Of a DNA stretch of 64,000 nucleotides, positions 1 to 64,000 are shown in pieces. The translations under genes and the position numbers were made by a program. The stretch's first letter is position 1, and each line of letters opens with the position of its first letter. The notes beneath the pieces were generated by a model that made no database searches, had not been told where the DNA came from, and saw only the letters and a list, made by a program, of their open reading frames with translations. Source of the stretch: a virus; the IMG/VR virus record IMGVR_UViG_3300048839_000196, positions 9,883 through 73,882 of that record. One strand, given 5' to 3'.

Positions 1-2
1 TA

Positions 3-1085
3 TATCCTTATCAGTATTTATCATCTCAGGGTTTCGGGAGCTATGCTCAAATTGCAGCAGGTCTAAATCAAGCAGCTATTGACTTTGCGCCAATGGTTCA
101 ACGCGGAGATTTTGTTATGATAAACCTAAGCCTCGGTGGGGCTGGCACAGATGCCGCTGTTGAAGCTGCGCTTAAGCGCTGTAAGGATGCAGGCATCTTA
201 ATCTTCGTCGCAGCTGGAAATACAGGGCAAGTAGGTGTTCAGTTCCCGGGCAAAAGTATTAGCGTGAAAGCTATTGCCGCGCTAGAGCAAACGGCTGATT
301 ATGTTCGACGGGCCGGGTACTCCACAATGGGCCCAGAGGTATGGATGAGCGCGCCCGGATCAAATGTCTGGTCAACCTATGTTCCGGGCAATACTTACGC
401 ATCGCTATCTGGCACAAGTATGGCTACTCCGACTATGACTGGACTTGCTGCTATCCTAGCCTCCACTAAAAATAAGTACAACCCAGATCAAGTAGTAGCG
501 GCTCTTGAGCGAATAGCTACTGATTTACCTCCTGTCGGCAGGGACCAAGAGACAGGCCACGGCATAACCTTCATCGACAAAATCCTATCACTTCCAGACG
601 ACCCGGGCAGCGCTCCTAAGCCTGATCCTAAGCCAGACCCACAACCAGAGCCAAAGCCTGAGCCTGTATATCCGAAGCAGACGAACTACATAGATATCGG
701 CGCCACTCTATCGGCGCGCTGGGCTAGCAACGGAAAGAACAACTGGCAGGACACGAAGTTCGAGATGGAGATTGAATACACGCACGGGAAAGAGATCAAT
801 TCCGCTATTGCAGAGATCTCAAAGGTAACGCAGGCGCACTTTACAAACAGAGGGTATTTGCTTCTTGGAGATGACGACCTAGAGGATGCGTTGAAATGGT
901 TCGCCTACTTCTACGAAATGATCCTGAAGATGGAGGGCCACGAAGTAAGAGTTGCGAAGATACATACAGCTAGTGCAGACAGGCTTGTAGTCACAAACCC
1001 TGTAAGATCAAAGATTTCCGTGAAGAGCGCAAGGCAAGCAAAGCCCGTGCGACTAGGAGTCACTTCATTTAATTTAATTCGATAA
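3..1085 (+). CDS. Subtilisin-like S8 serine protease with Pro-rich linker and C-terminal domain (5'-truncated by window edge)
   Basis: INLSLG, VAAGN (oxyanion Asn), SAPG and GTSMATP (catalytic Ser) motifs. The frame is open back to nt 3, so the true start lies upstream of the window. Confidence 0.9.
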   Translation, partial: YPYQYLSSQGFGSYAQIAAGLNQAAIDFAPMVQRGDFVMINLSLGGAGTDAAVEAALKRCKDAGILIFVAAGNTGQVGVQFPGKSISVKAIAALEQTADYVRRAGYSTMGPEVWMSAPGSNVWSTYVPGNTYASLSGTSMATPTMTGLAAILASTKNKYNPDQVVAALERIATDLPPVGRDQETGHGITFIDKILSLPDDPGSAPKPDPKPDPQPEPKPEPVYPKQTNYIDIGATLSARWASNGKNNWQDTKFEMEIEYTHGKEINSAIAEISKVTQAHFTNRGYLLLGDDDLEDALKWFAYFYEMILKMEGHEVRVAKIHTASADRLVVTNPVRSKISVKSARQAKPVRLGVTSFNLIR

Positions 1086-1095
1086 AACATTAATC

Positions 1096-1692
1096 ATGGC
1101 TAAAGAGAGAGAACCAAAATTGAAGCCGATTGGCGACATCAGTGCAACAATCATGCGGCTTTTCTTGAACTTCACTGGAGCACAGCTTGAGAAGAAGATC
1201 GGGAACGAAGACGTAAAGGACGGAGTCATGCTGGCATTCCCGCTAGCAAAGACTATCATCGAGGTGCTTAATGATGAAATCCCAGAGAACGACAAGCAGG
1301 TGCGCGAGGCACTGCTCGATCACATTAATGGCCCGGTAGCTGACTTCTTGGACCGTATTCTCGGGCAAAAGATCGAGCCGATCGAGAATGAAGACGTTGA
1401 GGCTCTGCTGGTATTTATTAAGGACAAGGCTATTAGCGCTCTGCGCCTGATCACGGATGATGACGCACAGAACAAGGCCCAGCTCGATCTGTTCTTTGAC
1501 GAACTCATGCGTGACCCACAGTTCCATGCACTGGTCATAGACCGCATCTTGATCCCGATTGCCGTAAAGGCTGGCGCCACTGAAGAGTGGGTGGAGTTCC
1601 TGCGTGAAGTCATACAGACGACGCTTGATGGCCTACTCAAGGTAAAGGCGGCTCAGCTTCGCGCTCAGCTTAAGCAAATTCAGGAGGCATGA
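1096..1692 (+). CDS. Hypothetical helical protein
   Basis: 198-aa ORF in the operon; its stop overlaps the next start (ATGA). Confidence 0.7.
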   Translation: MAKEREPKLKPIGDISATIMRLFLNFTGAQLEKKIGNEDVKDGVMLAFPLAKTIIEVLNDEIPENDKQVREALLDHINGPVADFLDRILGQKIEPIENEDVEALLVFIKDKAISALRLITDDDAQNKAQLDLFFDELMRDPQFHALVIDRILIPIAVKAGATEEWVEFLREVIQTTLDGLLKVKAAQLRAQLKQIQEA

Positions 1693-2090
1693 GAACACTG
1701 GCCATTATTGCAGTGCTCATGATACACGGACTGACGCTGAGCGCACAGACGCTTGACCCATTCTACCGGTATGCAATCAGTGATACTATCACTGACACGG
1801 AGTCCGACACCATTACACTACCGGCGCTTATGCTTTCGCCATGGTCTTATAACTGGACCATACAGACTACACAACTCTCTGGAACACAGAACGTTGCGTG
1901 TGTCTTACAGGAAAGCGCAAGTGCCACAGGGACAGACTGGATTCAGATTGACTCGAAGACTACGACTGGATCTACTGATTTGGATCGTATGGTTGGCGCC
2001 TTAATCTATGGCCAGCGACAAAGGGTCATACTCACTGGAACCGGCACACAGAGTACTCGATACACCATCTACTTTGTAGCGAAGAAATAA
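1689..2090 (+). CDS. Secreted small beta-sandwich protein, putative virion decoration; paralog of 54496..54954
   Basis: Signal peptide MRTLAIIAVLMIHGLTLSA|Q; SGT-x6-LQ-x-S...W-x2-I pattern; two D-T-I sequons. Confidence 0.6.
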   Translation: MRTLAIIAVLMIHGLTLSAQTLDPFYRYAISDTITDTESDTITLPALMLSPWSYNWTIQTTQLSGTQNVACVLQESASATGTDWIQIDSKTTTGSTDLDRMVGALIYGQRQRVILTGTGTQSTRYTIYFVAKK

Positions 2091-8100: not shown

Positions 8101-11100
8101 AACTTTTCATCGGACATCAATTTATCCCAAGCCTCATCCTTATGTACGAGATAGTAATTCTTGGCCATCGACATCGCATATCCATACACATCTGGATTTA
8201 TGTTTATGGTGCCAAATCCAGTCCGGCTCGGAGGCTTTCTAAATGCCCCTCGCCATGAACTATCATCTTCTTCTTGGAAGGTAACTCGGAACCTATCCTC
8301 AATAACATTTTCAGAGCGCACGATTAATTCGTCATTGTATAGGCGCACTATCTCTGAATCCGTACCAAGCGCAGCTCTCAGTCCGATAGAATTACCTCTG
8401 TCTAATCCTCGCGCAATCCTCGGCAGCGATTCCTTGCTTATTAAATCTTGATATGGCACTTCATATCTCCACTTCCCATCAACTCCCTTCTCCCATCCAG
8501 TTTGATTCCATATAGCTCGTCTTGATTTCTCGTACTCATCGCCAGATTTTTCGGCCAACTTCTTGGCGAACTCCAAGTTCTCTAGTATATCCGCCCTTAA
8601 GTCGGCGCGTTCGCCAACTATTTGCTTATACACCTTAAGCTTATCTTCTTTAGCTGCGTCAATACCTTCTTTCTCGACAGCCCCTACATTGGCCTCCGTA
8701 CTTGCAAACACCCCTCTCCTACCTTCAGCCGCCCGCCCAAACATCTGCATGGCCTGCTGCACGGCTTGACGGTCACCATACTGAAGACCTTTCTGCATGG
8801 TATTGAAAAGTGCTACCGCATCTCCAGATGTGGTAAGCCGGATCACCAACTTATTCTCTCCAATGATTGCAGCGATAAAGTCATTGATCGCCTTCTCTAT
8901 ACGGCCAAGCGCGGTCTTATCTTTAACCTCGGCTAGTCCTTGAGAAACAACGGCGCCAAGTTCGGCAAGGTATTCTTCGCTCTGTACGTCTTGTCGATCC
9001 TTGTATTGAGCAACAAAGAGATCTAGGTATTCGCCAACAGTTATCGTCCTGCCGTCCTTGAGTTTCACTGGCGTGCGCTGATTGACGTGCGGCTTTATCT
9101 TCTGCACAAGCGCATCTACCTCTTCTGGGCGCTGCGTGGCTGCGTGTTCTATGATAACGTGGAAGCCTTCATGTAATGCAGAGTCAGATGTTGCAGCGCC
9201 CCTATTTAGCATGATGATCTTCGACTTCCCTTTGCCGCCACTAGCGTACACAGCCCGGCTTCCGAGTACATTATCGGCACCCTCTTTGCCAAGCGTCTGC
9301 TCCAGCTTCGGCCTTGAAGACTCATCTACCACGAGCACCGGCACGCCAAGTCCTTTAAGCGCATCGGCTACGCGGTATGCAGACGAAAGAACCGGGTCAT
9401 TGTTTAGCTCGCCCATGTCCATGGCCTGCACATTCTGTACGGTGCGCCCATCAGTAAGTCCGAAGTCGCCCTTGTCTTTGGCCTGCATCCGGCCTATGAG
9501 GTCCGTCTCTGCGTCGCGGCGCTCCTGCTCAAGCCTAGCCCTTGTTTCTGGCGTGATACCCTGATCAGCCAATACCTCATCCAAGTACTCCACCCGCATC
9601 ACGCTCTCGCGTATGTCGTTAGCTGCTGCTTTCTCTTCTGTTAGGAATGCGACAACCTCCTCGCCACGGGTCACAGCTTGACGGTATTCAGGGCTTTCTT
9701 GTCCGAATTGCGCCTCTACTTTATCAAGGTGTGCATCGTATGCAACCTTCACCCCTTCGGCGTCGTCTGTTTCAGACACCGGGATCTGGGTTGCAATCAT
9801 CTTCGCTTCGTCGGAGTACTGCCTGCCGGTAGGCTGAGCTACCTCCTGCTGCTCTTGAATAGCATCGGCCTGCGCGTTCCTTCCTTGAGTAATACGACCG
9901 GCCTCTTCGCGCATGATATCTGCCCTAGCTTGATAGTCCTCTTGAGTTGGCGTAGTTCCTGCCATCATCTGGTCTGCGGCAGCACGACCTACTACCGGAG
10001 CTGCACCAATCGCTGCGCCAGTTGAAGTGACACCTCCACCGGCTATACCGCCAATGACCGCTGCATCGAGCACGCCTTCGAATATATTCCTGCCTTTGTC
10101 TATCGTAGCCTTGTCCACAATATTCTCCGCCAACTGAGCAAGCGCTTCACTGCCAGCTTCTTCAAGCGTGTTCCCTGCAATTCTGCCTAGCGTGTTTACA
10201 ATGGCAGCCTTTACACCTTTGACGGCGAAATCCCTGCCGTAGCGGGTGGCCATCTTCAGCGCCTCCTTGCCAATCTTACCACTCACTGCTTCCGTTATCC
10301 CCTCGAATGCTCCAGTGAGCACAGAGTTCAAGGCTTCCTTCGCTCCAATGTCATACCCTTCTTCGACGAGCTGTTCGTACTTCCCCTTACCGGCAGACAG
10401 ACCAACAGCAGTTGTCCCAACCCCGGGCACCATGGCCATCATCATATATGGCATAGATCCGATGGCTTCGATACTTGCCTTCCTGAATCCCTCGCTGATC
10501 CTACCTTGAGAAACTAGACTAGTGAATGTTTCATCTGCGTTCTCTAGCTTCGCACGAACTACTTTCGTGTTTGCGCGCTGACGATCCGCCCACTTATCAA
10601 GACCTCCAAATTCATCAGAGATGTATTCTGCTGCTTTGAGCATAGCGGGGCCGGGTGTCCAGTCCAACCCTCGCTCAACATTCCTTCTAATTGTTTCTTT
10701 TTTCTCGTCATGTTGCGCTTGAGTTATCTCCCCGCGCTTCAACCTCCTGTCTTCTTTCATCATCGCCACATCCGTCATTAAGGCGTAGTACACATCACGG
10801 ATGTATTCTGGCGCTTCAAGTGCATTAGCTACTGCTTCTTTCCCAACAGCTCCAATCATTGCTGAGCCTTGCTCTAGCACAGACTTTTCACTCAGCGGCC
10901 TAGCTCTTTCCTCCGCTTTCATTTTTTCCACAACGGGCGACGACTCCTCTACCCGGACGCCCGGATATGGAGACACCTGTCTGCGTGCGTTACGCGCCTG
11001 CCTTACCTCTTCGATTGCCTGATCGGCGCCTTTTATACCGAACTCAGAGAGCGTGGGGTTGCTCTTGACGCCTGCTGACGGGGTGGAGGGTGTGCCCGGT

Positions 11101-11468
11101 AGCCCAGCTATGTTTGTGGTCGCCACTGGAGCTACACCCTCCTCTATAAATTGCTTCTCTCTTCCAACTGCTACCGGCGCAGGAACCTCCTGCCCCGCAA
11201 AAGTCCTAGTGCCCAGACCTGAGCCAGCGGTTTCCACTGAGCCAGTCCCAGATTCTTGCACTGATGGATTTTTTTTTTCAACGGTCGTCAGGTGACCACG
11301 AACGAAAACATCTTCCGGATCAGCCGTGAGCTTATTCTCTAGCATAAATCCATGGAGTTTCCTCAATCCGTCTTCTGTGGACACATTATCCCTGAATGAC
11401 TTCTCGTCGATCTCGCCAAGTTTGCCGGTACCCTTGAGGTAGGCGTATAAATTTTTAATTGGGTCCAT
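2151..11468 (-). CDS. Giant polyvalent virion/ejection protein (two zincin HExxH modules, LPD23-like, ART-PolyVal-like, C-terminal LPD38-like)
   Basis: 3105 aa. Motifs: HEGFH; TGWEKGVDGKWRYE; HEVQHAIQYIEGF; FHGT...YFT...GHDGIII...QIK; IPRPYG...PFAEVIVNRDWMGRQI. It is the last gene of the tail operon. Confidence 0.75.
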   Translation of the reverse strand: MDPIKNLYAYLKGTGKLGEIDEKSFRDNVSTEDGLRKLHGFMLENKLTADPEDVFVRGHLTTVEKKNPSVQESGTGSVETAGSGLGTRTFAGQEVPAPVAVGREKQFIEEGVAPVATTNIAGLPGTPSTPSAGVKSNPTLSEFGIKGADQAIEEVRQARNARRQVSPYPGVRVEESSPVVEKMKAEERARPLSEKSVLEQGSAMIGAVGKEAVANALEAPEYIRDVYYALMTDVAMMKEDRRLKRGEITQAQHDEKKETIRRNVERGLDWTPGPAMLKAAEYISDEFGGLDKWADRQRANTKVVRAKLENADETFTSLVSQGRISEGFRKASIEAIGSMPYMMMAMVPGVGTTAVGLSAGKGKYEQLVEEGYDIGAKEALNSVLTGAFEGITEAVSGKIGKEALKMATRYGRDFAVKGVKAAIVNTLGRIAGNTLEEAGSEALAQLAENIVDKATIDKGRNIFEGVLDAAVIGGIAGGGVTSTGAAIGAAPVVGRAAADQMMAGTTPTQEDYQARADIMREEAGRITQGRNAQADAIQEQQEVAQPTGRQYSDEAKMIATQIPVSETDDAEGVKVAYDAHLDKVEAQFGQESPEYRQAVTRGEEVVAFLTEEKAAANDIRESVMRVEYLDEVLADQGITPETRARLEQERRDAETDLIGRMQAKDKGDFGLTDGRTVQNVQAMDMGELNNDPVLSSAYRVADALKGLGVPVLVVDESSRPKLEQTLGKEGADNVLGSRAVYASGGKGKSKIIMLNRGAATSDSALHEGFHVIIEHAATQRPEEVDALVQKIKPHVNQRTPVKLKDGRTITVGEYLDLFVAQYKDRQDVQSEEYLAELGAVVSQGLAEVKDKTALGRIEKAINDFIAAIIGENKLVIRLTTSGDAVALFNTMQKGLQYGDRQAVQQAMQMFGRAAEGRRGVFASTEANVGAVEKEGIDAAKEDKLKVYKQIVGERADLRADILENLEFAKKLAEKSGDEYEKSRRAIWNQTGWEKGVDGKWRYEVPYQDLISKESLPRIARGLDRGNSIGLRAALGTDSEIVRLYNDELIVRSENVIEDRFRVTFQEEDDSSWRGAFRKPPSRTGFGTININPDVYGYAMSMAKNYYLVHKDEAWDKLMSDEKLAKSIDDLNSTFTHEVQHAIQYIEGFESGANSNYYQSILERVGRLESRYLRAFFDAIKYEKELMAAEDKLNQDPDLANKKITIMQYRIFSETFVPITVEYSYIPDMLASFRKRWEDSGMADDYYRKGREEQAKLDGEKSKLTGPLKGILDSFAAYRATAGEVESRAAQQRRKLTDVERKVMPISEFYDIATESIIFLSEVQSAVNQQPEIRQQKLSVEDFEWLGPEGQENFRKWVGDAPIVDGEDVLEIQTGQPVVIQAFHGTTNSFYSFDKANEKGEIGGQFGKVNYFTSDQYDAQANYTTGGPDLEYKIRRDADDLSQSFDMDGLSPEEVIDMFNLTDAQLETFDRNDLESLALAISYNRHNGGEDKVLDLFVKLNNPVRIADDQYIDMMPDVSAYMEDAAQEMADENDITPEEALEDYEFDVRQRALDLSGEELTVVQALQDAIDEWAPRETTTADQILEDRIYEDSISTAALEAAIRRDLPYAEDEEGRLVSSQIVAQTFRNLGHDGIIINASVRFPSMDMQDMTAHIHVFDEFANQIKLADGSNMTFGEGVDIRQQKKIDTTEKLRSEPPVFDLSDFTAKSNKRAETYHQESKQRYEAMFDKHPSSVQTDDLSSLERVGKTFVAFEKGGSVGNVAKVEAALSDNARPLYEMVSRITERISTVKDGKVSREDVMRGALVASLDKDAVPVYDVLGVVGAIDDVFVSTVDGQQMVRVEDAVSLLANTPGGLDSAEAKQLLSLYDNAAENRVEKINSTLDAYAESTQGYNVSKISPKIDTKGRSIPAAVVGLGRVAKDSLLHKVATGYTPKPGVDYKVTPMSSRASIIAQATGQKTPVVESIFNAIWNEIPAQSRDDAFFELAQNEFGFELQAMAIKDGDSGIDIRQQKASPALRAYPEYKAARKYVNDNYDRIPDLEIVRNTARNFGMFESDAKELFEVVSGRGYRAPGSPMAGAVEEANRFWRRMGKLLGDSQVKNKRDFAYSFDFRFGNFLAPLRKFQRDIEKQIGVLLPGTLNAYDAMQLYSSASIYELQAHTLWFWGDNGSKSSKDKSFVGRVTKQLGGVNKFNEFLLALHLPERLLRKLDLLEKYQKDIFSDIERLMASAQQGISSLQTTGIGTAQFWQVANQQASVDPNLARLIAKFNDLQQRIAEMNDAYIKALDRQAEFLSRISGQSFPVIQPGQPLPTNPELNKYMQFYEEFRDKMLTPYLDALMAAGRIDQKRYDHLVKGTSDESTIQWKYYVPMMYSEDAVNHELGITNGERIVNLNGIEGLSKPYDQKTRHKLLNMQAEDVVRPLELAFARLASATRQKHRQDALRRFAELARQHGATDRIRVFSARNVPKMDKYGNIVGAQSLLPKEILENSVPFYEGGKVKYIYFSNPGDQMLAMLRSPDVEGEMSTFMKWYSAILGVMRIGITSLSPTFILNNFLRDIQESSINIRVENDLLQINNTKLKKAWRKRWREAAAQQITPFIASKRVHSDMDRYYAEYLQIGASMGWNFDSSGIFTDIAGKVNERIRDAERVAASGLPRDLATSKNAMIEMMMGLSARFENVSRLAAYASMRDLGVDPIRAAAIAKNITLNFEKKGQFFRGSAGRFISGLYLFLNAGLQSGRKLVKQLSNPAGRRMLALYGMGSTAFRVMLHALYATGDDDEEPKEKGEITMQHGLDRYMNSAFMRQFYLAIPNPFDVDDPVLIPRPYGALRVVGLVADGVVDASLGKRSLLSVTSDVKSAFFTSLDPIGFVSGEITNAVPTLMRPFAEVIVNRDWMGRQILFSREDTRMYAQANKRTLQFYKDLTPSLYAATGLSISPTHMEHIIESYTRTLYPLKFAYGWGKSWDDFNKSADKDKEDKTFTEWMWDQGRINLIAYKPNLSQNERQDMYNFMSMTDVGAKAPLVPPTWTDQEIEYLTRAAKVIRREKLLREQDINSQMVNVALEMQRSGQLDRKASDGKTYRQKIMAIVSSGGRDGFRKKLREAEKGD

Positions 11469-19954: not shown

Positions 19955-20428
19955 TTAATCGTATTTGCGTAGCCCCTCCCGGTTAATGACGTTCATAACT
20001 TTGTCTCTATACCGCTTCTTGGCTTCGGCACTTGCGTACACGCCAACGTACGATTCGGATATACAGTCAACCCACTCTTCTGAAGTGGTGCAACTTTTGC
20101 ACCTGTTGTAGTATGGCTTGGTTGTAATGTGAATTCCAAAGTCGTTAAAGGATTCCCAAGCATTCGGATAGGCCCGGGTTTCGCCATCTTGACTGATCCA
20201 ATAGGAGCTATTGTACCGGCCCGAGATACCGAAGTAGGCGTTGTGCTTGCGTGCGCCCTCACTCGTGCCCCATCCGGACTCTACTGCGGAGATGCCGAGT
20301 TGTACACTAGCGGGGATTCCATAGCGCTCGCTCATGGATTGGGCCAGTGGAGCGAAGCGCTCCTGAAAAGAGGTCACATGCGCCGGTGTGGCAAAGAATA
20401 AGGTAATGATAAATAAAATCAGATTCAT
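19955..20428 (-). CDS. GH73 glucosaminidase/muramidase (FlgJ-like) with N-terminal signal or anchor
   Basis: YGIPASVQLGISAVESGWG, NAYFGI and RAY...ESF motifs; hydrophobic N-terminus. Confidence 0.8.
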   Translation of the reverse strand: MNLILFIITLFFATPAHVTSFQERFAPLAQSMSERYGIPASVQLGISAVESGWGTSEGARKHNAYFGISGRYNSSYWISQDGETRAYPNAWESFNDFGIHITTKPYYNRCKSCTTSEEWVDCISESYVGVYASAEAKKRYRDKVMNVINREGLRKYD

Positions 20429-41312: not shown

Positions 41313-41328
41313 AAGATTTTGTTTTTTG

Positions 41329-41400
41329 ACGCGCAGCCGAGAGTCGAACTCGGGGCTGGGGATTATGAGACCCCTGTGTTACCAGCTACACCACCGCGCA
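41329..41400 (-). tRNA. tRNA with CAT anticodon (Met; Ile2 not excluded), CCA not encoded
   Basis: Cloverleaf TGCGCGG TG GTGT AGCTGGTA ACAC A GGGGT CTCATAA TCCCC AGCC CCGAG TTCGACT CTCGG CTGCGCG T. Confidence 0.85.
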
Positions 41401-54495: not shown

Positions 54496-54954
54496 ATGAA
54501 TAAGACTATTAAGTATTTTCTTGGCGCCGCTGTCCTGCTCTTTATCGGCATGATCCTTCAGAGCGCGTCTGGTGAGGCTGGCCCAACGTCAGATCAGATC
54601 GTACAGCCTGATGCTGTAACTATCAATCAGACTGACAGTGTCAAGTACATCGCCTTCAACTCGCGTGAGATCAAGGCTGACTACAAGGTTTCCTGCCATG
54701 TCGAGCTGGTTGAAAACTCCGGCACAGTAACCACTACGTTTACTCTGCAAGGAAGCAACTTCCCGCCTTCGCTTGGATTCTGGGATGACATCAGTGCAGT
54801 TACGCTCAGCGACACGGGCGACAGTACTATCACTACTGCAACAACTTCTCCTTCTTACGCTTACTACCGTTTGGCAGTAGCAAAGGCTACGAACTCCGGC
54901 AACTATTCGGTGACCGTAAATGCCTCTGCTAAGTTCAACACATTCTGGCGTTAA
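54496..54954 (+). CDS. Signal-peptide-bearing small beta-sandwich protein, putative capsid decoration
   Basis: MNKTIKYFLGAAVLLFIGMILQSA; SGT-x6-LQGS...W-x2-I...YYRL; directly after the capsid gene. Confidence 0.6.
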   Translation: MNKTIKYFLGAAVLLFIGMILQSASGEAGPTSDQIVQPDAVTINQTDSVKYIAFNSREIKADYKVSCHVELVENSGTVTTTFTLQGSNFPPSLGFWDDISAVTLSDTGDSTITTATTSPSYAYYRLAVAKATNSGNYSVTVNASAKFNTFWR

Positions 54955-55032: not shown

Positions 55033-55884
55033 ATGTTCACAACAGACGAGTTCAACAACCTACCAAAGTCTGTCCTTGCTAGGATTCCAAAGCTGGAGGG
55101 TCAGACCGTTAAGTTCCGCGTAATGGGCGGATATCGAGATCACCACAATGGCGGAGTGATCAGATTCCCATACATGAAAACTGTGCCATCAACCGACATG
55201 ATTGTTGGCGAAAACAACGACGTGCATCAAATTGCACACATCACCCGGCGCGGTGGTCAGCCAGAAATGATCCTGTTTGAAAACTCCAATGCCGGACACA
55301 TCCTTATCTCTCCGGATCAAAGCGGCAAGTACCGGCCAGCAGACATTATCATGTATGAATACCTGATGCTCTGCAACTACAATGCGAACAACCCGCACCG
55401 CGACACAACAAAAGAGATCATCTTCGAGGAAGTGAACGACGCAAAGGCCGCTGAAGCTAAAGTCGAGAGTAAGCTATCCTCTATCGAGCTGATCCGTAGG
55501 GTCGCTGTATTGAGTGATGACCAAGTCCGGCTTGTGTCCGCAAAGCTCGGTACGAGCGAACCAACGGACTCTGTTCAATCCTTACGCGTCAAGCTCATGG
55601 ATGCAGCCGAAAGCGACTTCGATCAGCTCAATTCAATCATTCAGCAGGTCGAAGCAGACGGTGAACACTTGATCGCTGTTCAACGTGCCATGGATCTTCA
55701 GGTAATCTACCTAGACCGGCGCAACTTCGTATGGAAGTGGAAGACAACCAAACTGGATATCAAGGAAGGCGATCGGCAAAAAACCATCGCTGACAACGTA
55801 ACCTCATTTGCAAGGTGGCTCAGAGATAGTGACGATGGATCGAAAGTGTACGCCACCATCTTAGCGGCACTAAAAACCGATTAG
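55033..55884 (+). CDS. Conserved head-module protein (no signal peptide)
   Basis: 283 aa; position and helical C-half like the protein that follows the capsid gene in crAss-like phages. Confidence 0.5.
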   Translation: MFTTDEFNNLPKSVLARIPKLEGQTVKFRVMGGYRDHHNGGVIRFPYMKTVPSTDMIVGENNDVHQIAHITRRGGQPEMILFENSNAGHILISPDQSGKYRPADIIMYEYLMLCNYNANNPHRDTTKEIIFEEVNDAKAAEAKVESKLSSIELIRRVAVLSDDQVRLVSAKLGTSEPTDSVQSLRVKLMDAAESDFDQLNSIIQQVEADGEHLIAVQRAMDLQVIYLDRRNFVWKWKTTKLDIKEGDRQKTIADNVTSFARWLRDSDDGSKVYATILAALKTD

Positions 55885-55900
55885 TGTTTTGCCGATCTCA

Positions 55901-55938
55901 GCAAGTCCCTTGGCGCGATGCACGCGCTGAGGGCTTGT
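55901..55938 (+). terminator. Hairpin / terminator
   Basis: GCAAGTCCCTTGGCGCG...CGCGCTGAGGGCTTGT. Confidence 0.55.
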
Positions 55939-56014
55939 TATTTACGGTAGAAAACTACGGCTAATTATTAGGGTAAGCAGTAGTTTTCTACATTTGTACC
56001 ATAAACCAATTCAA

Positions 56015-57676
56015 ATGAAGAAGTTACTGACATTTACCGCACTACTGTCTTTGGTTGCAATTTCGTGCAACGCTCAGTGGGTGCGACCAAATACATTCAC
56101 AGAGGACACGGCGCCTACGAATGCAACATTCGAGGTGTACTCACAGAAGAACGGCCTGCCGCGCAGAGCGTCACTGGACAACCTGAAGAAGTTCTTCGAT
56201 CAGCGCATCTACACTTCTGGAGATTCGCTCTGCATCACAAGGACGGTAGGAGATACCTGCATATACCTACCGGCAGGGACCAGCGCCGGGGCAGATTATG
56301 ACGTCTGGGCGCTACGCTCTTCTGGCGCAAGCTACCTGCTTTCCGCTGATACTGTTGACAAGTACAACTATATGTACATTCAATACGAGGCAATCACAAC
56401 TCCTAGCGGGAGTACGATTACGTTACCGAATGTAACGGCTTCGATGATTGGGAAAGTTGTGGAGGTGAGCGTATTTTATACTGGCGCATCCGGCCTTTCC
56501 AGTGCATCCATTGCGGGCCCACTGACTATTGTGAATGGCACGAGTGTTACATATCCATCAAGCTATACTGCAACAACAGGAACTTATAAGTTTGTCGCAA
56601 CGCTCGCCATTGATCAGGTGGCCACATACCGCTGGCAGTTACTATCTACTGGCGGGTCGGGTTCCTCTTCATCCAAAAGGGTTAATGTGTCTCAAGCCAC
56701 AAGCACTACCATCACATTAACGTCTGGAGATTTCACGAGCACTGATATCTGGCATTTTTACGCCAACGCATCAAGCGGTAACTCTGGCGTCGTTCTCCCA
56801 AATCCAAGCGCCGATCTGGTTGGGAAGACGGTGTTTTTCTACCCGTTCGCGACAGCTCCGAATACCAACTCAATTAATGCTTCTTCGTTATTCCTGATCA
56901 AGTTTACTGGCCCAAATACTTTCACCAGCGCATCTTCAGTGACTATATCAAGACCGATCGCCATTGTCTGTATTCCAGCTCCAATCGGATTCTCTGGCTA
57001 CTATTGGGCATGGGACTACCTAGACCCGCTTGACGAAATACAGACTCTTACCTTTACAAACGACACGCTTTCAATCTCTGGCGGGAACTCGGTGTATATT
57101 CCATCCGGCGACTCTGTGCTGCTTGGCAATATCCAAGACATCTCTACAAACCGCCTACTTGGAAGATATACCGCTGGCACGGGTCCGGTTGAACAGCTTA
57201 CAATAGGCTCTGATTTCTCTACCGCTGGAGGCACGCTTGCACTGGCAAGCGCATCAGCTACCGGGTACAGCTTCCATATCGCCACTTTAGCAGGAGGTGG
57301 CCGCGTCATAGTGACATACTTCGGAGCAGCGCCAAGTGTATCTGGATCTACCGGCAACTACACGATCACATTCCCAGCGTCCTGTCGCCCGATCTCATTT
57401 ACGGTGAACGGCGGAGCAGGTGACCTCACTGGAGGCGGCGCCTTGAACATAACTTGTACATGGACAAGCCTTCCATCTTCGCTCAATACGAGCGAACTGC
57501 TTATGGTTATACCTGCGATAACTATTACTGAGACGACTACCGCAAGTAATATCCAACTCAGCAATCAGGGCACAGGCTATCAGATCACGCATCCGACGAT
57601 CTCTGCTGGCTCTACAACAACAACGATCACCGGCGTTTCCGGCATCGGTTCATATTCTATAAAAGGTGTATTCTAA
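56015..57676 (+). CDS. Secreted fibre/appendage protein A
   Basis: Start MKKLLTFTALLSLVAISCNA|Q; S/T/G-rich; TLP...GK modules; fibre motif QDISTNRLLGR.TAGTGPVEQLT. Confidence 0.75.
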   Translation: MKKLLTFTALLSLVAISCNAQWVRPNTFTEDTAPTNATFEVYSQKNGLPRRASLDNLKKFFDQRIYTSGDSLCITRTVGDTCIYLPAGTSAGADYDVWALRSSGASYLLSADTVDKYNYMYIQYEAITTPSGSTITLPNVTASMIGKVVEVSVFYTGASGLSSASIAGPLTIVNGTSVTYPSSYTATTGTYKFVATLAIDQVATYRWQLLSTGGSGSSSSKRVNVSQATSTTITLTSGDFTSTDIWHFYANASSGNSGVVLPNPSADLVGKTVFFYPFATAPNTNSINASSLFLIKFTGPNTFTSASSVTISRPIAIVCIPAPIGFSGYYWAWDYLDPLDEIQTLTFTNDTLSISGGNSVYIPSGDSVLLGNIQDISTNRLLGRYTAGTGPVEQLTIGSDFSTAGGTLALASASATGYSFHIATLAGGGRVIVTYFGAAPSVSGSTGNYTITFPASCRPISFTVNGGAGDLTGGGALNITCTWTSLPSSLNTSELLMVIPAITITETTTASNIQLSNQGTGYQITHPTISAGSTTTTITGVSGIGSYSIKGVF

Positions 57677-59091
57677 TGAGAAAATTACTTGTCATACTGA
57701 TCACAGTACTTTCGCTAGAGGGGTACGCTCAGGACACACTGATTCGCAAGTTCAATGCAACAGTGACGTTCTCTGGCTTTGCTATTACTCCGACGTCGAG
57801 ATACGCTGGTACGCTTCTAGTCAATGATCAGACGAATACCTATACGGCATCCAGTGTGACAGTAGGCGATTATGTATTCACGTCGGCAGGTGGAACTTAT
57901 GTGGTTGATACCGTCGGCGCCGCATCATTATTCTCTATACCTGTTACGATCCGGCAGATCAGCGGGCAGACTGCGGTGCCTTCCGGAGTTGGGGATGTAA
58001 CAAAGCCAAGTACAAATTACGGACTCTTTACATTCACACCAGATAATCAGAACGGCGTATCTTCTCAAATGCAGTTTATAAAGCTCAGCGGACTAGTTCA
58101 TCGAATCGACTCTATCTTTCAGTCTGGCGGCAACGGACTCATCTCAGCGCTCCCTCTGGGTAGTGTAACAATAGACGCCAATGGTAACACACTTCGACTT
58201 GACACTATTAATACGTTCACTGCCATGTACTCAGCGACAGCGGGGATCACTAAGGGTAGGACAAGCTATTCGACCATGGCGTCAACTCCAAGGAACGACA
58301 TCAATAACGGGCTTGTGTTGAACAACGCAGGCGGAGCTTATCTGCATTTTACAAACGGAACGACTGCTGGAAATGTGCAGGCGTTCACCGACAGATCCGG
58401 TCTGCGTGCATGGGGCGCAACTCAGCTTGTCGCAGATATTGAGGTTAATGCTACAAATACAGTTCATGTAAGGTCTTATAATCCATCATCTGGAGTAATA
58501 GAAAGCAGCGTTACATTAAATGGGAAGACAATGACCATTGATGCCGACTCCATTATAAAGATGTACGACATATACAATCTGCCAAATGCGACCCCACCTT
58601 CAGATGGAACGCCATACGTTATGTCATGGACGAATAACACTCCGTCATTTTCTTCTGCCGTGGCCGCAAGTACATATGATGCGGGCAACGGCGCCTTTGT
58701 TACAGCTACCGGTGGCGGGGTGACATTCTCAAGGACAGACGGTGTAACTGGCACCTTCACTATTCCGGCTGGAGTAGAACTTCTTAGTGGATCAATACAT
58801 CACTCTTCTGCTCAAAACCCGGGCAGCGTGTACTATATTCGGTTCGACTTCCAAGGAAGCAGGGCGACGAACACGGGTATAAATACACTTTCTCCACCGA
58901 TCGTAAGAGTGATCAACAAGTATCTAGCTGCTCCAAGTAGGACGAACCCAGCCACGTTTGACTCTACGAGCGGAACGATAAACCTTACTGCTCGGGTTAC
59001 TGGTGTGTCGCCACTTGAAATGAAGCTAGAGAACTATAACAACTCCGTTGTTGGTGGATCGCAAGAAACGATGATTAAATTCGTGTTCTGA
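57676..59091 (+). CDS. Secreted fibre/appendage protein B
   Basis: MRKLLVILITVLSLEGYA|Q; beta-rich. Confidence 0.75.
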   Translation: MRKLLVILITVLSLEGYAQDTLIRKFNATVTFSGFAITPTSRYAGTLLVNDQTNTYTASSVTVGDYVFTSAGGTYVVDTVGAASLFSIPVTIRQISGQTAVPSGVGDVTKPSTNYGLFTFTPDNQNGVSSQMQFIKLSGLVHRIDSIFQSGGNGLISALPLGSVTIDANGNTLRLDTINTFTAMYSATAGITKGRTSYSTMASTPRNDINNGLVLNNAGGAYLHFTNGTTAGNVQAFTDRSGLRAWGATQLVADIEVNATNTVHVRSYNPSSGVIESSVTLNGKTMTIDADSIIKMYDIYNLPNATPPSDGTPYVMSWTNNTPSFSSAVAASTYDAGNGAFVTATGGGVTFSRTDGVTGTFTIPAGVELLSGSIHHSSAQNPGSVYYIRFDFQGSRATNTGINTLSPPIVRVINKYLAAPSRTNPATFDSTSGTINLTARVTGVSPLEMKLENYNNSVVGGSQETMIKFVF

Positions 59092-59897
59092 TGAAGAAAA
59101 TAATTATCCCATTTCTATTGCTACCAGTCTTCCTGTTCGCTCAGGCGGACTTCAATGGTTTTGGGGATGTTACACAATCAACTTATGTCAATGATAGTAC
59201 CTTTACTGTTCGGATTATATTCACTGGAGCTTACTATGACGGAGGACAGCACATTGTAGATAGCGTAAAAACCGGGGACTACTTCTACACTGACTGCTCA
59301 GCTTACAGGATATCTACAATCACGATAAAGACTAGCGGCGTATTTGAGGGTAATATCGTAAAGCGTGGGACTGGAGGCCAGCCGGGCGTTGGATTCAGGG
59401 CAACATTATTCCGTAGGACACCATCAAGGTTACTGCTTCGAGGTACGATATATGGAAATGATAATTACGGGATAGCGGCAAATGAGTACAATTGCATACT
59501 CCAGAGCTTGATCACACAGCTAGATACGATTGGCACTGTAAGCGGAGGTGGGGTGGTTGACTCTACTCGAATCATTCAGGATTCGATTGCAGTTTACTAT
59601 CAAGCTGGTATTGAGATAGGTAGAGATACTATTCGTCCGTCAGGTACTATCGGAGGTGGCGATGATTGGGGCGCACAGGTGGTTGTTACAGACGCGATGA
59701 CCTTATCAGGTAATGGGACACCGGGTGATCCATTAAAAGTAGAGGTTGGTACTATGCGAACAAAATTATCTGTTGGTACTTATGCAAACGACACATCAGC
59801 AGGGGCCGGTGGAGTTCTTACCGGCGAGTGGTATATTCTTTCAGCAACAAATACACTTGGGCTTCCACCCGGTACATTAAGACAAAAAATCTATTAG
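59091..59897 (+). CDS. Secreted fibre/appendage protein C
   Basis: MKKIIIPFLLLPVFLFA|Q; fibre motifs TLSGNGTPGDPLKV and YANDTSAGAGGV. Confidence 0.75.
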   Translation: MKKIIIPFLLLPVFLFAQADFNGFGDVTQSTYVNDSTFTVRIIFTGAYYDGGQHIVDSVKTGDYFYTDCSAYRISTITIKTSGVFEGNIVKRGTGGQPGVGFRATLFRRTPSRLLLRGTIYGNDNYGIAANEYNCILQSLITQLDTIGTVSGGGVVDSTRIIQDSIAVYYQAGIEIGRDTIRPSGTIGGGDDWGAQVVVTDAMTLSGNGTPGDPLKVEVGTMRTKLSVGTYANDTSAGAGGVLTGEWYILSATNTLGLPPGTLRQKIY

Positions 59898-59899
59898 CA

Positions 59900-60790
59900 G
59901 TGAGAATCTTGTTGGCATTTATCTTGCTTGCCGCATTTTCTGCGGCGTTCGCCCAAACATCAATTATCGGTGGGTCTGGGGTAACTATTGTAAATGGAAA
60001 CCCAAACTCAAACGCCGATCTAGCTGATCAGGACTTGAGGTATGAGGCTGGTATAGCGCTAGATACCACGAACAACTTGCTGTACATCTACCGACATGAC
60101 GCAGCGCCCGGGTCGAAATGGGTGGACTACTCAGCAGTGGTATCTTCTGATACAGATACTCGACTGAATAATTTCACCTACTCTGGCGGGAAGATCAGGT
60201 GGGATGTGTATAATGTAAAAACGTCATCTGTTATTTCCAGCGACTCTCTTGATATTTCAGCAGTGAATACAGACGCACAGAACCTAACATTCACTGGTGC
60301 GTCTTCTCCATTTACGCTAGACATATCTGGAGGTACGGATGTAACAATAGCATCTGGTACAGGTATAACTTTATCGATGAGCACCAATGAGCTGACGGTA
60401 ACCAACTCAGCTCCAGACCAAACGGTTTCTATATCCGGGACAGGCATTACAGTTGGCGGCACATACCCATCATTTACTCTTACTGCGACTGACCAATCAG
60501 TGACGAATGAAGCACAGACTATATCTTCATCTGCTGTCTCTGCTAGTGCATCTAACCTCACGCTTAATCAAGTCGGAGGCGCAGGAGGAGGCACGGTTGC
60601 GGTGAGCGGAGCAGGAGGTGTGGTACTGACTGGCGGAGCGAATACATTGACTTTCGGCACATCTGCTGTTACGGCTAAAAACTTTGCGGATGCAAACACG
60701 CAGGGCGTAGTTGTTGGTGGGTATTTCTACGCATCTCAGGATAATACAATGGGCTTGACGCCCGGGAGTTATGTTCGCCGAATGTTTTAA
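59900..60790 (+). CDS. Secreted fibre/appendage protein D
   Basis: GTG start 59900 gives MRILLAFILLAAFSAAFA|Q; SGTGIT fibre repeats and NSAPDQTVSISG. Confidence 0.75.
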   Translation: MRILLAFILLAAFSAAFAQTSIIGGSGVTIVNGNPNSNADLADQDLRYEAGIALDTTNNLLYIYRHDAAPGSKWVDYSAVVSSDTDTRLNNFTYSGGKIRWDVYNVKTSSVISSDSLDISAVNTDAQNLTFTGASSPFTLDISGGTDVTIASGTGITLSMSTNELTVTNSAPDQTVSISGTGITVGGTYPSFTLTATDQSVTNEAQTISSSAVSASASNLTLNQVGGAGGGTVAVSGAGGVVLTGGANTLTFGTSAVTAKNFADANTQGVVVGGYFYASQDNTMGLTPGSYVRRMF

Positions 60791-60801
60791 AAAGGAGTAC
60801 T

Positions 60802-63800
60802 ATGTATAAACTTATTCTGACTTTATTTATTTCATTAGCTTCAGTATCGCTTGTTGGGCAGGCGGTAGTCGGTGGGTCTGGAGTTTGCGTGGTAAGTGGA
60901 AACCCAAACAGCATGAGTGCTATTGAGGATCAGGACTTCCGCGTGAACTGCTTGATTGCTTACGACACATCCACGAAGATCCTTTATTGGTATGACAAGA
61001 CATTCTCTATTGGGAATCGTTGGCGCCAAGTAAATCCATCAGAAAGATACAGTAAGTATTTTGAGTCAACAGGTGCAGACTTGCCGTCAGACAGCACTAA
61101 CCTGTACAAGTTGTCCGCGTCATTTGTAAGTGTTTACTTGCGTTTGCAATCCGGAGCGTCGTCCAACTTGCTAATGAATTTTGACAATCCATTGTCATCT
61201 GATTTAGGGAAAGTATTCATAATTACAGCAGACGACGAAGACGGCACTTGGGCTGTACAATTATCTGGGTTGATTAGAGTTTCTGGATCGACAGTTACCA
61301 CATACACAATGGTTCATGGCGAGACGGTCATTTTAACCGCACAGGAAACAGATGATGGCAATAGATGGGTAATGTCTTCAGTGAGTCAATCTAAAGTTGC
61401 GTCAATGATTGTGGATAGCCTATCTGGGTATTCAACACTAGTGGATTCGACGCGCATCATATCCGACAGCGTAGCCGTGTATTATCAAAACGGCTCCGAG
61501 GTTGGCAGGGACACTATCAGAGTGCCAAGCTCAGGCGGCGGATCAGGCACAGTGACAAGTGTAGCGACAGGCGTAGGTCTTACAGGCGGCCCGATCACGA
61601 CAACGGGAGTAATTAGCGTAGATCATGGCACTCAGTTCTATAATTATACTTTCACGCAGGCGGCGGCAAGCATGAGCGACACTGGCAGGGACGGGAGCGC
61701 GCTTGTACAGATGGGGGATTATCTTTTCTTGCTTGGCGGATGGAACCCGGCATATACGCCACAGACCTTTTCTTCTCAATTTCGTGCCCACAAAAACAGC
61801 CCCCAAACATGGGTAAAACTCAAAGACGCGCCTTGGTATCGTCGGCATACAGTAGGGCACGGAGTTATCGGAGATACTGCTTTTATATGGGGGCAAGATT
61901 ATTACAGCTCTTCTAATGCAAATGATATATGGAAAGGTTATTTGAATGGGGATACTATAGTTTGGGCGCTGGTTGACACATTGCCATACCCTAGAAGCCG
62001 CATTCTTTTTGGCGGGACTGTACATAATGGGTGTTTGTTTACCGTCGGCGGGCAGGTAACACTGAACGACACTACAAGCACGCGCAATGATGTATGGAGA
62101 AGCTGCGACAACGGAAAAACATGGTCGCAGGTTGCAAGTGGATTAAGCTGGGCGAATAAAAACCTTTGGGGCGCGGTAGCTTCGTATAATGGGTATTTAT
62201 GGGCAGTTTCCGGCGGGTATTATTTGACGCCAAAAAGTTACACAAATACAATATATCGCAGCATAGACGGTGTTACATGGGAACAAATGCCTAATTATCC
62301 TTTTCTAGGCGTGGATTATCCGCAGACTGTTGTGCATGATGGAAAATTATGGGTATTACATGGCGGCGCAAGTTCCAATAATCTAGGCATTGACACAATC
62401 GCTTATATGGACAGCGGAGGGAACTGGCGACAAGTTCTTAATTCAATGCCCGGCAGACATGCCGCCGCCGCTATTTCAGTAGATGTTGGCACGGATTCAA
62501 GTAAGCTAGTAGTGATGACTGGCACACTTGGCAGCGGTCCTCTTTCAAGTGATGTGTGGATTGTAGAAAGATCAGGCTATGACTACATTACTGCTGGGCA
62601 AGACGCTATTTTGCGAAAACTAGAAGTGAGAGATTCATTATTTTCAACACTAATTGTGCCAAAATCAGGGACATCTGTTAATGTAATCAATAATGCGCTA
62701 TACGTATCAAGTAACAAAATAGGAATCAATCAAACTCCGGCAAATTTACCCGGAGCAATGAATTTCAACGCAGTGAACATGTATGTAGGCGCTAATATTG
62801 GATCCGCTGGCGGCGGGAATCTTTATGAGGGAACCGGACGAACCGCAAACACTGAAAAGTCTTTCATAATGACTATGCCGTCATATAGTGGGACATCTGA
62901 CAGAATAGGGCTGATATCCGCGTATAATTACGGCGCAACAAATAACCGTTTTTATATTGGGTCAGCTGGCGCTATTAGCCTCGCAGGTCCTGATTACATT
63001 ACAATAGGGCCAAAAGTAGCAACCGGATCGCGTCCCACAGCATGGACATCGGGGCAAACAACAAATACCCGAGGTACGTTTGGTGTTGGCGCTTGGAATG
63101 ATGGCATTCCAAGTTATGGCGTCGGCGCTTTTGAAAACACGGACTATCAGACACACACTTCAGGCCATCGTGCTGCATATACAGGCGGTGGTGGATTTGT
63201 GGCGTCATCAGGAAATGGGACATGGGCGTTAATAGACCTTAGGGATAATATCGTCCAAACAGGAACCGCGACCGGCGCAACTTGGGGGCTAAGAATACGC
63301 CCTTCTATTACCGCAGCGCCTAATTGGACTGCTATATCAATAGAAAGCAATCAAGGGATTGGAGTGTATCAATCCGGCGCAAGCGCAACAAATAACTTCG
63401 CAGGCTCTACCCGCATAGGCTCCACGTCGGCCCCGGCCCGTCGCTTACATGTTTCCGGCGTGGTGCGCTTAGATTCGCTTGCATCATTCACCCCGACGCG
63501 CGTTGTCGGCGCTAACACGGATGGGGATTTAGGCGCGTGGACTATGAGCGTGTTAGCGGATAGCATCGACAACTATATTACCACGTCCGGGGTAACGGAC
63601 GGCGACAAAGGCGACATAGACGTGACAAGCTCCGGGGCCGTGTGGACAATAGACACGGCGGCGGTTAATACGCTGAAAATCGCAGACGGCGCGGTAACCT
63701 CCGACAAGCTCGCAAGCGGGGCCGCAGGTGGGGCGAAATTGGGCGGGTTGACTTACTTAAGCGTAGATGACGCAGATGTGGACTTAAGCAATTATCTGAC

Positions 63801-64000
63801 AATCGACTGGATAAGCAACTATTCACAGCTTGTTGTCTGGCTGCGCATCGGAAACACAGCGAGCCGGACGGTAACTTTCCCGGAGCCGTCAAGTACATAC
63901 GCAGGGAAAATAGTTGAAGTGTTTTTCGGAACAACAAACGGCGGTACGCACTTCGGGCAGATCACAAGCGGCGGCACAAACCGCCTGACGTACCGGGATG
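60802..64000 (+). CDS. Secreted fibre/receptor-binding protein E with Kelch-like beta-propeller (>1066 aa, 3'-truncated, not in ORF track)
   Basis: Manual translation is open to the window end: MYKLILTLFISLASVSLVG|Q; GTVTSVATGVGLTGGPITTTG; Kelch/Asp-box repeats (LFLLGG, LFTVGG, VWRSCDNGKTW, YRSIDGVTW); DGDKGDIDV; KIADGAVTSDKLA. Confidence 0.85.
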   Translation, partial: MYKLILTLFISLASVSLVGQAVVGGSGVCVVSGNPNSMSAIEDQDFRVNCLIAYDTSTKILYWYDKTFSIGNRWRQVNPSERYSKYFESTGADLPSDSTNLYKLSASFVSVYLRLQSGASSNLLMNFDNPLSSDLGKVFIITADDEDGTWAVQLSGLIRVSGSTVTTYTMVHGETVILTAQETDDGNRWVMSSVSQSKVASMIVDSLSGYSTLVDSTRIISDSVAVYYQNGSEVGRDTIRVPSSGGGSGTVTSVATGVGLTGGPITTTGVISVDHGTQFYNYTFTQAAASMSDTGRDGSALVQMGDYLFLLGGWNPAYTPQTFSSQFRAHKNSPQTWVKLKDAPWYRRHTVGHGVIGDTAFIWGQDYYSSSNANDIWKGYLNGDTIVWALVDTLPYPRSRILFGGTVHNGCLFTVGGQVTLNDTTSTRNDVWRSCDNGKTWSQVASGLSWANKNLWGAVASYNGYLWAVSGGYYLTPKSYTNTIYRSIDGVTWEQMPNYPFLGVDYPQTVVHDGKLWVLHGGASSNNLGIDTIAYMDSGGNWRQVLNSMPGRHAAAAISVDVGTDSSKLVVMTGTLGSGPLSSDVWIVERSGYDYITAGQDAILRKLEVRDSLFSTLIVPKSGTSVNVINNALYVSSNKIGINQTPANLPGAMNFNAVNMYVGANIGSAGGGNLYEGTGRTANTEKSFIMTMPSYSGTSDRIGLISAYNYGATNNRFYIGSAGAISLAGPDYITIGPKVATGSRPTAWTSGQTTNTRGTFGVGAWNDGIPSYGVGAFENTDYQTHTSGHRAAYTGGGGFVASSGNGTWALIDLRDNIVQTGTATGATWGLRIRPSITAAPNWTAISIESNQGIGVYQSGASATNNFAGSTRIGSTSAPARRLHVSGVVRLDSLASFTPTRVVGANTDGDLGAWTMSVLADSIDNYITTSGVTDGDKGDIDVTSSGAVWTIDTAAVNTLKIADGAVTSDKLASGAAGGAKLGGLTYLSVDDADVDLSNYLTIDWISNYSQLVVWLRIGNTASRTVTFPEPSSTYAGKIVEVFFGTTNGGTHFGQITSGGTNRLTYRD

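Follow-up and report, generated by a model that had tools for sequence, protein, structure and literature searches.

The stretch examined here, a window of 64,000 nucleotides, comprises bases 9883-73882 of the 73,882-base IMG/VR virus record IMGVR_UViG_3300048839_000196, which is rated complete by CheckV; the first 9882 bases of the same record, upstream of the window and denoted L002, were also read. The record represents an uncultured, crAss-like short-tailed podophage of about 74 kb, and the window closes with five consecutive genes, here called A to E (Table 1), each of which begins with a signal-type leader that ends in SCNA, GYA, LFA, AFA or LVG, respectively, and is followed directly by Gln, just as the initial annotation of this DNA had described. 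The reading developed below, to which we give an even chance of being right in full, is that A-E are trimeric mosaic host-recognition fibres of a podophage infecting Bacteroidota, made through the Sec pathway, matured in the periplasm and joined to the particles at lysis.

The five genes are tightly packed. The start codons of B and C each overlap the stop codon before them by its final base, D most likely starts at the GTG at 59900, two bases past the stop codon of C, rather than at 59828, and none of the junctions leaves space for a second start lying beyond the leader. The gap before gene A contains a long hairpin (GTAGAAAACTAC...GTAGTTTTCTAC), and a TACATTTG box resembling the Bacteroidota -7 promoter element lies about 23 bases 5′ of the gene A start, so that A-E may constitute a transcription unit of their own. 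The Bacteroidota promoter pattern TTTG...TAnnTTTG has five matches (1.3 expected), none of them preceding gene A.

Table 1. Positions of genes A-E, their leaders and the other features discussed (window numbering unless a prefix is given; "motifs" are occurrences of D-[ST]-[AILVMT])
Feature	Position	Strand	Remarks
Gene A	56015..57676	+	553 aa; 5 motifs; mature start QWVRPN
Gene A leader	56015-56074	+	MKKLLTFTALLSLVAISCNA
Gene B	57676..59091	+	471 aa; 6 motifs; mature start QDTLIR
Gene B leader	57676-57729	+	18 aa
Gene C	59091..59897	+	268 aa; 6 motifs
Gene C leader	59091-59141	+	17 aa
Gene D	59900..60790	+	296 aa, GTG start; 2 motifs, no excess; conserved N-domain, repeat shaft, conserved C-terminal 40 aa
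Gene D leader	59900-59953	+	MRILLAFILLAAFSAAFA
Gene E	60802..64000	+	>1066 aa, 3′ end cut by contig end; 14 motifs; D-like N-domain with Cys29/Cys50; weak Kelch-like stretch
Gene E leader	60802-60858	+	19 aa
Gap before gene A	55884-56015		long hairpin
Subtilisin-type (S8) protease	1..1085	+	leader MKKIIILLLQFLCIGMHA then Q; gene begins 396 bases before window
133-aa protein	1689..2090	+	leader ...GLTLSA then Q
3105-aa open reading frame	2151-11468	-	no Cys
Glucosaminidase-type lysin	19955..20428	-	hydrophobic N-terminal leader, no Gln +1 pattern
tRNA-Met gene	41328-41400	-	single
152-aa protein	54496..54954	+	between capsid gene and A; hydrophobic N-terminal segment; kept in related phages
406-aa protein	L002:2168-3388		leaderless
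426-aa protein	L002:8209-9489		Gln +1 leader
Repeat shared by E and 886-aa paralogue	63400-64000; L002:5300-5920
Phaeodactylibacter xiamenensis NZ_JPOS01000079 locus	L007:9332-15741		three leader-bearing fibre-like genes

Leaders of the signal-peptidase-I type

Substrates of signal peptidase I in Bacteroidota characteristically expose Gln at position +1, a regularity known as the Q-rule (PMC5837995, PMC10653852). The leaders of A-E have the corresponding build, with one or two Lys/Arg at the start, a hydrophobic core, a small residue at -1 and Gln at +1 in all five, and this build is conserved in three families. In ten homologues of B, the first 18 residues vary while remaining hydrophobic and strong conservation sets in from Gln19 on, Gln at +1 being retained in every B homologue whose N-terminus is intact. 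All 22 homologues of A have a leader with Gln at +1 and none has a lipobox. A search with D against 1.8 billion representative proteins gave 784 matches, and among the best 150 of these a leader is present in 94, ending in a small residue followed by Gln in 90 of the 94. A profile of the N-domain common to D, E and the 886-aa protein, a paralogue of E encoded in L002, gathered 44 clusters, 43 of them with an intact start, and in all 43 the domain lies directly behind a leader with Gln at +1. Two related phage contigs (L005 and L004) repeat both the leaders and the gene order found here (portal, scaffold, capsid, small membrane protein, 284-aa protein, A, B and a further fibre), every fibre bearing a leader. 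Leader and Gln are thus kept by selection over many diverged relatives, and a leader that drifts in sequence while its cut site stays put is typical of a signal that is removed. Hence, the proposal that these are Sec signals of the Bacteroidota signal-peptidase-I type gains from conservation in the A, B and D/E families, and there is good support for export of A-E by the Sec system and for a cut in front of Gln, both of which are, judged from these sequence patterns, very probable.

The cysteines fit less neatly with what had been noted. Their description as coming mostly in pairs is partly right, the mature proteins A to E holding 5, 0, 2, 0 and 4, respectively. In the N-domain of the D/E family, however, a pair does behave as a unit, as both cysteines are present in 26 of the 44 clusters, neither in 18 and a single one in none, which is as expected of a disulfide formed in an oxidising compartment.

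Two other destinations were considered. The initial annotation had allowed that A might be a lipoprotein (ISC), and this is ruled out: the Cys of its ISCNA is missing from most of the 22 homologues and otherwise sits at -2 to -4, never at +1, and it is Gln that follows the cut. As to cargo of the type IX secretion system, neither the Por_Secre_tail model nor any other model of its C-terminal domain matched A-E, their paralogues or ten proteins of the D family, and this reading is rejected as well.

Probable mosaic fibre architecture and a candidate glycosylation motif

The fibre-like nature that had been proposed for A-E is supported by modules that they have in common, by the recurrence of the D repeat in proteins with tail-fibre ends and by a trimer model of D. 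The N-domain of B, of about 150 residues, is found also on proteins with quite different C-termini, and that of C resembles it, while D, E and the 886-aa protein have another N-domain in common. C, E and the 886-aa paralogue contain the same 27-residue three-motif module, E and this paralogue are 58% identical over their C-terminal 350 residues, and C and D end in the same 40 residues. The latter (..NTMGxxPGTxxRRxF, with an aromatic final residue) also close many small family members, and a docking or folding role for them is possible. The repeat at the centre of D is found again in giant proteins with leaders, and also in leaderless ones that end in matches to PHROG tail-fibre families.

Three copies of mature D were modelled as an intertwined homotrimer, with an interaction prediction score from aligned errors (ipSAE) of 0.73, as compared to 0.00 for the best control. 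Predicted contacts run along residues 120-255, with at least 87% contact agreement between runs and a partner pLDDT (predicted local distance difference test score) of at least 83. Among proteins solved as same-chain pairs, 20 of 30 attain this mark, as does 1 of 23 solved as single chains, a calibration that holds only roughly for D, for which three copies and an alignment of our own were used. As a monomer, D was modelled with a pLDDT of 69, and the AlphaFold model of B (pLDDT 37.5) was unusable. Foldseek found no match to the D model at E <= 0.001, solved structures searched by sequence yielded nothing useful, and the ESM Atlas gave sub-threshold leads only (scores at most 0.85). E alone has a sub-threshold Kelch match. 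That A-E are mosaic fibre-type proteins is thus likely, with moderate support from sequence modules and modelling.

The second distinctive trait of A-E is the motif D-[ST]-[AILVMT], the site of periplasmic O-glycosylation in Bacteroidota (PMC8550257, PMC8729774, PMC12871550). The counts given in the initial annotation were reproduced exactly, with 33 of the 141 Asp residues of A-E (Table 1) and 2 of the 24 in the capsid protein lying in the motif. The 33 occurrences compare with 13.5 ± 3.5 in composition-preserving shuffles (2.45-fold, p <= 0.001) and with 17.7 under a first-order Markov expectation (p = 5e-7), the excess being clear in B, C and E and marginal in A (p = 0.08). Over the mature parts of 12 leader proteins, 54 were observed and 23.7 ± 4.6 expected from shuffles (about 2.3-fold), as against 43 observed and 47.3 expected in the 46 leaderless open reading frames (ORFs) of the phage and 18 observed and 23 expected in the leaderless structural proteins of Calle_1, a related phage of Cellulophaga. 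The family of A holds 132 motifs, compared to 55 in shuffles, and the same excess is seen in the fibres of the related phage L005.

The predicted enrichment over shuffles is therefore present, and it depends on Asp, on the direction of the motif and on which residue comes third. In the 12 leader proteins, no enrichment is seen when Asp is replaced by Glu, Asn or Gly, when the motif is reversed or when the third residue lies outside the set AILVMT; a residue of that set follows D[ST] in 54 of 72 cases (75%), compared to 43% of all Ser/Thr (p = 2e-8, first-order Markov). Removal of duplicated modules leaves 47 of 64 D[ST] dipeptides in the motif (p = 8e-7), and the same Markov test finds no excess in the leaderless ORFs (p = 0.24). 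Mere richness in Ser/Thr is ruled out as the cause by the control motifs and the Markov expectation. Glycosylation by the host at these motifs is, on such statistical grounds, plausible for this phage lineage and slightly favoured.

Weighing a proposed periplasmic route to the virion

Assembly of tailed phages is, in textbook accounts, wholly cytoplasmic. A host secretion signal and a sugar-attachment motif on the same late proteins, at least ten in all, make the periplasm, and not the cytoplasm, the probable place of maturation for A-E and the others. Late in infection, host Sec would export A-E and their leader-bearing paralogues, signal peptidase I would cut before Gln, and the exposed Gln would cyclise to pyroglutamate. 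In the periplasm, the fibres would fold and trimerise, form a disulfide where the covarying Cys pair exists, as in E, and receive the general O-glycan of the host at the D-[ST]-[AILVMT] motifs. Once holin and lysins open the envelope, the fibres would meet particles built in the cytoplasm and dock through their conserved end modules, perhaps on two leaderless proteins of 742 and 406 residues whose genes lie among theirs. The general proposition that tailed phages of Bacteroidota build a part of the virion outside the cytoplasm, with pyroglutamate-capped, disulfide-bonded and O-glycan-coated fibres attaching at lysis, is accordingly a tentative one, somewhat less probable than its opposite.

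Whether A-E end up on the virion is, by analogy, about evenly balanced. The analogy is with the Cellulophaga phage phi18:3, whose portal and muzzle proteins are homologous to those of the present phage and whose gp085, gp086 and gp087 begin ..FGYS, ..GVSA and ..GLNA, respectively, each followed by Q. RefSeq lists these three as virion or tail proteins "based on experimental MS/MS proteomics analysis" (MS/MS, tandem mass spectrometry). Within the present genome, the leaderless 406-aa protein and the leader-bearing 426-aa protein are paralogues (37% identity) that both match phrog_1645, "virion structural protein". Relatives of this type in cyanophages and in HMO-2011 carry virion-protein annotations, and the one from S-RIM8, as translated here, has no leader. 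The effect of the leader could be tested on the 406- and 426-aa proteins, which make a natural pair.

Several points weigh against this reading. The leaders were called by hydrophobicity and cut-site rules of our own, together with conservation, and the host, and with it the glycosylation system, is placed to phylum level only. No curated fibre family of Pfam, PHROG or NCBIfam was found in A-E, and VIA-align gave the D model weak matches (Z at most 4.3), the leads being to the N-terminal regions of tailspikes from phages. The claim of virion membership, which stands by analogy with gp085-087 of phi18:3, is weakened by the lack of any detectable sequence similarity between these and A-E, and their detection by MS/MS could stem from co-purified material. 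With the 742- and 406-aa proteins as leaderless virion candidates, the particle need not depend on A-E, and we know of no route by which periplasmic proteins join the particles of tailed phages. The claimed motif enrichment, which holds in this phage lineage, is absent in three places: in gene D (p = 0.6); in 89 leader-bearing D-like proteins from elsewhere, at 0.72 times the shuffles, the same as in 39 leaderless D-like proteins (0.68 times); and in gp085-087 of phi18:3, with one motif each and about three expected. It is this phage lineage, and not leader-bearing fibres at large, that is marked by the excess, and glycosylation does not always accompany the leader.

For the glycosylation step alone, the motif excess might be a by-product of shared ancestry and of a recurrent fold element, a hydrophobic strand leading into an Asp-Ser/Thr turn, rather than of selection, an account we consider doubtful though far from negligible. 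Most sites do read hydrophobic-hydrophobic-D-S/T-hydrophobic, so that a structural reading of the motif has some footing; several lie within duplicated modules, and the lack of excess in phi18:3 and in the wider leader-bearing family would fit. Yet the excess persists without the duplicated modules, as given above, and it appears in proteins as unrelated as A, B, a 243-aa protein and a different fibre of L005. A fold element would, moreover, sit uneasily with the absence of excess in the reversed motif and in the analogues starting with Asn, Glu or Gly, and in leaderless structural proteins, whether of the present phage or of Calle_1.

The destination of the proteins is open to another account, which we regard as unlikely: that A-E are exported but never join the virion, serving instead as unattached fibre-like binders or as enzymes, either in the periplasm or once lysis has released them, while the particle adsorbs through leaderless proteins (the 742-aa, 406-aa and muzzle proteins). 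Candidate roles would be the masking of receptors on debris or neighbouring cells, the loosening of surface polymers and superinfection exclusion. The pairing of a leaderless 406-aa protein with a leader-bearing 426-aa one suits a virion copy and an exported copy, and the 742-aa protein, well conserved and encoded in the same block, is leaderless in all 27 homologues. It was not found in two related viral records, both of them fragments. An exported S8 protease accompanies the fibres, and Q-rule proteins of Porphyromonas gingivalis prophages have been read as modifiers of the host envelope (PMC10367356). Against this, about a fifth of the genome is spent on leader-bearing genes, sited in the structural block, and their swappable end modules resemble docking modules. 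With neither a type IX C-terminal domain (in A-E and the ten D-family proteins) nor a lipoprotein signal (in A), A-E have no known way to the cell surface, and in phi18:3 the leader-bearing proteins were found in virions by MS/MS. Very improbable is the third account, in which the hydrophobic N-termini are uncleaved anchors or structural helices (an inner-membrane tether until lysis, or packed in the tail), since, although the 152-aa protein and the lysin have hydrophobic N-termini that lack Gln at +1 and the monomer model has residues 2-19 helical, leaders drift in sequence with length, charge, the small residue at -1 and Gln at +1 held fixed (43 of 43 clusters), Gln at +1 is specific to Bacteroidota signal-peptidase-I substrates (PMC5837995), and a signal anchor would still put the body of the protein in the periplasm.

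Should the periplasmic route to the virion be correct, a conserved leader on host-recognition fibres would amount to a second, periplasmic arm of virion assembly, in which the fibres are open to host-type glycans and disulfides and in which lysis and final assembly need joint timing. Expression of such fibres for host-range or structural work would have to allow for the export route, and annotation pipelines that count a signal peptide against a structural role would have to be corrected.

The phage, its host and the nearest known systems

The gene content includes a P22-type portal, an SU10-type capsid protein, a crAss-type muzzle protein and two lysins. Among cultured phages, the closest portals (about 24% identity) are without exception those of podophages that infect Flavobacterium, Cellulophaga, Tenacibaculum and Maribacter (Flavobacteriia), and genes of the D family are present in Phaeodactylibacter genomes and in another Bacteroidota genome. 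On both counts, the phylum of the host is Bacteroidota, in agreement with the initial annotation. DNA and protein searches of cultured phage records returned no match to the capsid protein, to region A-E or to protein E, and the 886-aa paralogue matched a short shaft motif in cyanophages and nothing else there. A capsid-based scan of viral contigs found no related loci; a narrower D-family alignment used for the locus scan led to one viral and three genomic loci. At least the last 100 bases of the record, within gene E, recur inside the 886-aa paralogue. The ORF that opens the contig is short by 22 codons only (a complete 742-aa version lies on another contig). The nominally linear record is therefore probably an almost closed circle that was opened at the repeat and lacks a few hundred bases. 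The 3105-aa ORF adjoins the muzzle and tail genes, the position that giant virion proteins occupy in Cellulophaga podophages (gp123 of phi18:3), and the tRNA-Met gene lies where the direction of transcription switches.

The leader-type pattern reaches well beyond A-E. At least ten ORFs of the 73,882-base genome have a leader cut before Gln, namely A-E, the 886-, 243- and 426-aa proteins of L002, the S8 protease and the 133-aa protein, and two more have hydrophobic leaders of other kinds; all lie within one + strand late block except the lysin. Glucosaminidase-type lysins with a leader are a known kind of exported endolysin. As the 152-aa protein lacks the Gln +1 pattern, its N-terminus could be either a leader or an anchor that stays uncleaved, and the S8 protease could process exported fibres or attack host surface proteins. 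In Phaeodactylibacter too, a leader-bearing protease adjoins leader-bearing fibres: the P. xiamenensis locus of Table 1 also encodes a homologue of the 187-aa protein of the present phage and a small membrane protein. Upstream of it lies the gene of a 235-aa P-loop ATPase whose terminase-like match is weak. The locus could be a prophage or some other mobile element with the same exported-fibre block.

Among known systems, cellular substrates of the Q-rule and O-glycosylation machineries of Bacteroidota resemble A-E in leader layout, in Gln at +1 and in the motif D-(S/T)-(A/I/L/V/M/T) (PMC5837995, PMC10653852, PMC8550257, PMC12871550), but here these traits occur on the late fibre-type genes of a phage. 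The Q-rule proteins known from P. gingivalis prophages are of unassigned function and have not been linked to virion parts (PMC10367356), and no paper was found on exported, secreted or host-glycosylated fibres of tailed phages, including those of Bacteroidota. Calle_1 has a related portal and mosaic fibre genes, and the D shaft repeat is found in leaderless fibres that carry PHROG tail-fibre ends; the tail and other structural proteins of Calle_1, its cytoplasmic tail fibres included, differ in having neither leaders nor a motif excess.

The closest working analogue, compared by description, is provided by the mosaic adhesive trimer (MAT) fibres of Bdellovibrio bacteriovorus (PMC10769870), which are phage-tail-fibre-like and mosaic, with a Sec signal peptide, a conserved beta-rich N-domain, an intertwined trimeric shaft and variable tips. 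They are nonetheless encoded by the bacterium and displayed on its own cell surface, and they belong to another phylum, with no Q-rule and no Bacteroidota glycosylation motif.

Another close system is phi18:3 (Pachyviridae, NC_021794), a Bacteroidota podophage of about 71 kb in which, besides the homologous portal and muzzle, three consecutive large late proteins with Gln +1 leaders adjoin the lysis genes; no paper was found that remarks on the leaders of these proteins, gp085-087. It differs from the present phage in having three leader-bearing proteins rather than at least ten, and in that these three have neither similarity to A-E nor a motif excess. Since phi18:3 is in culture, on Cellulophaga baltica, and its leader-bearing proteins have already been detected in virions, the idea that fibres reach tailed-phage particles by way of the periplasm can be tested there now.

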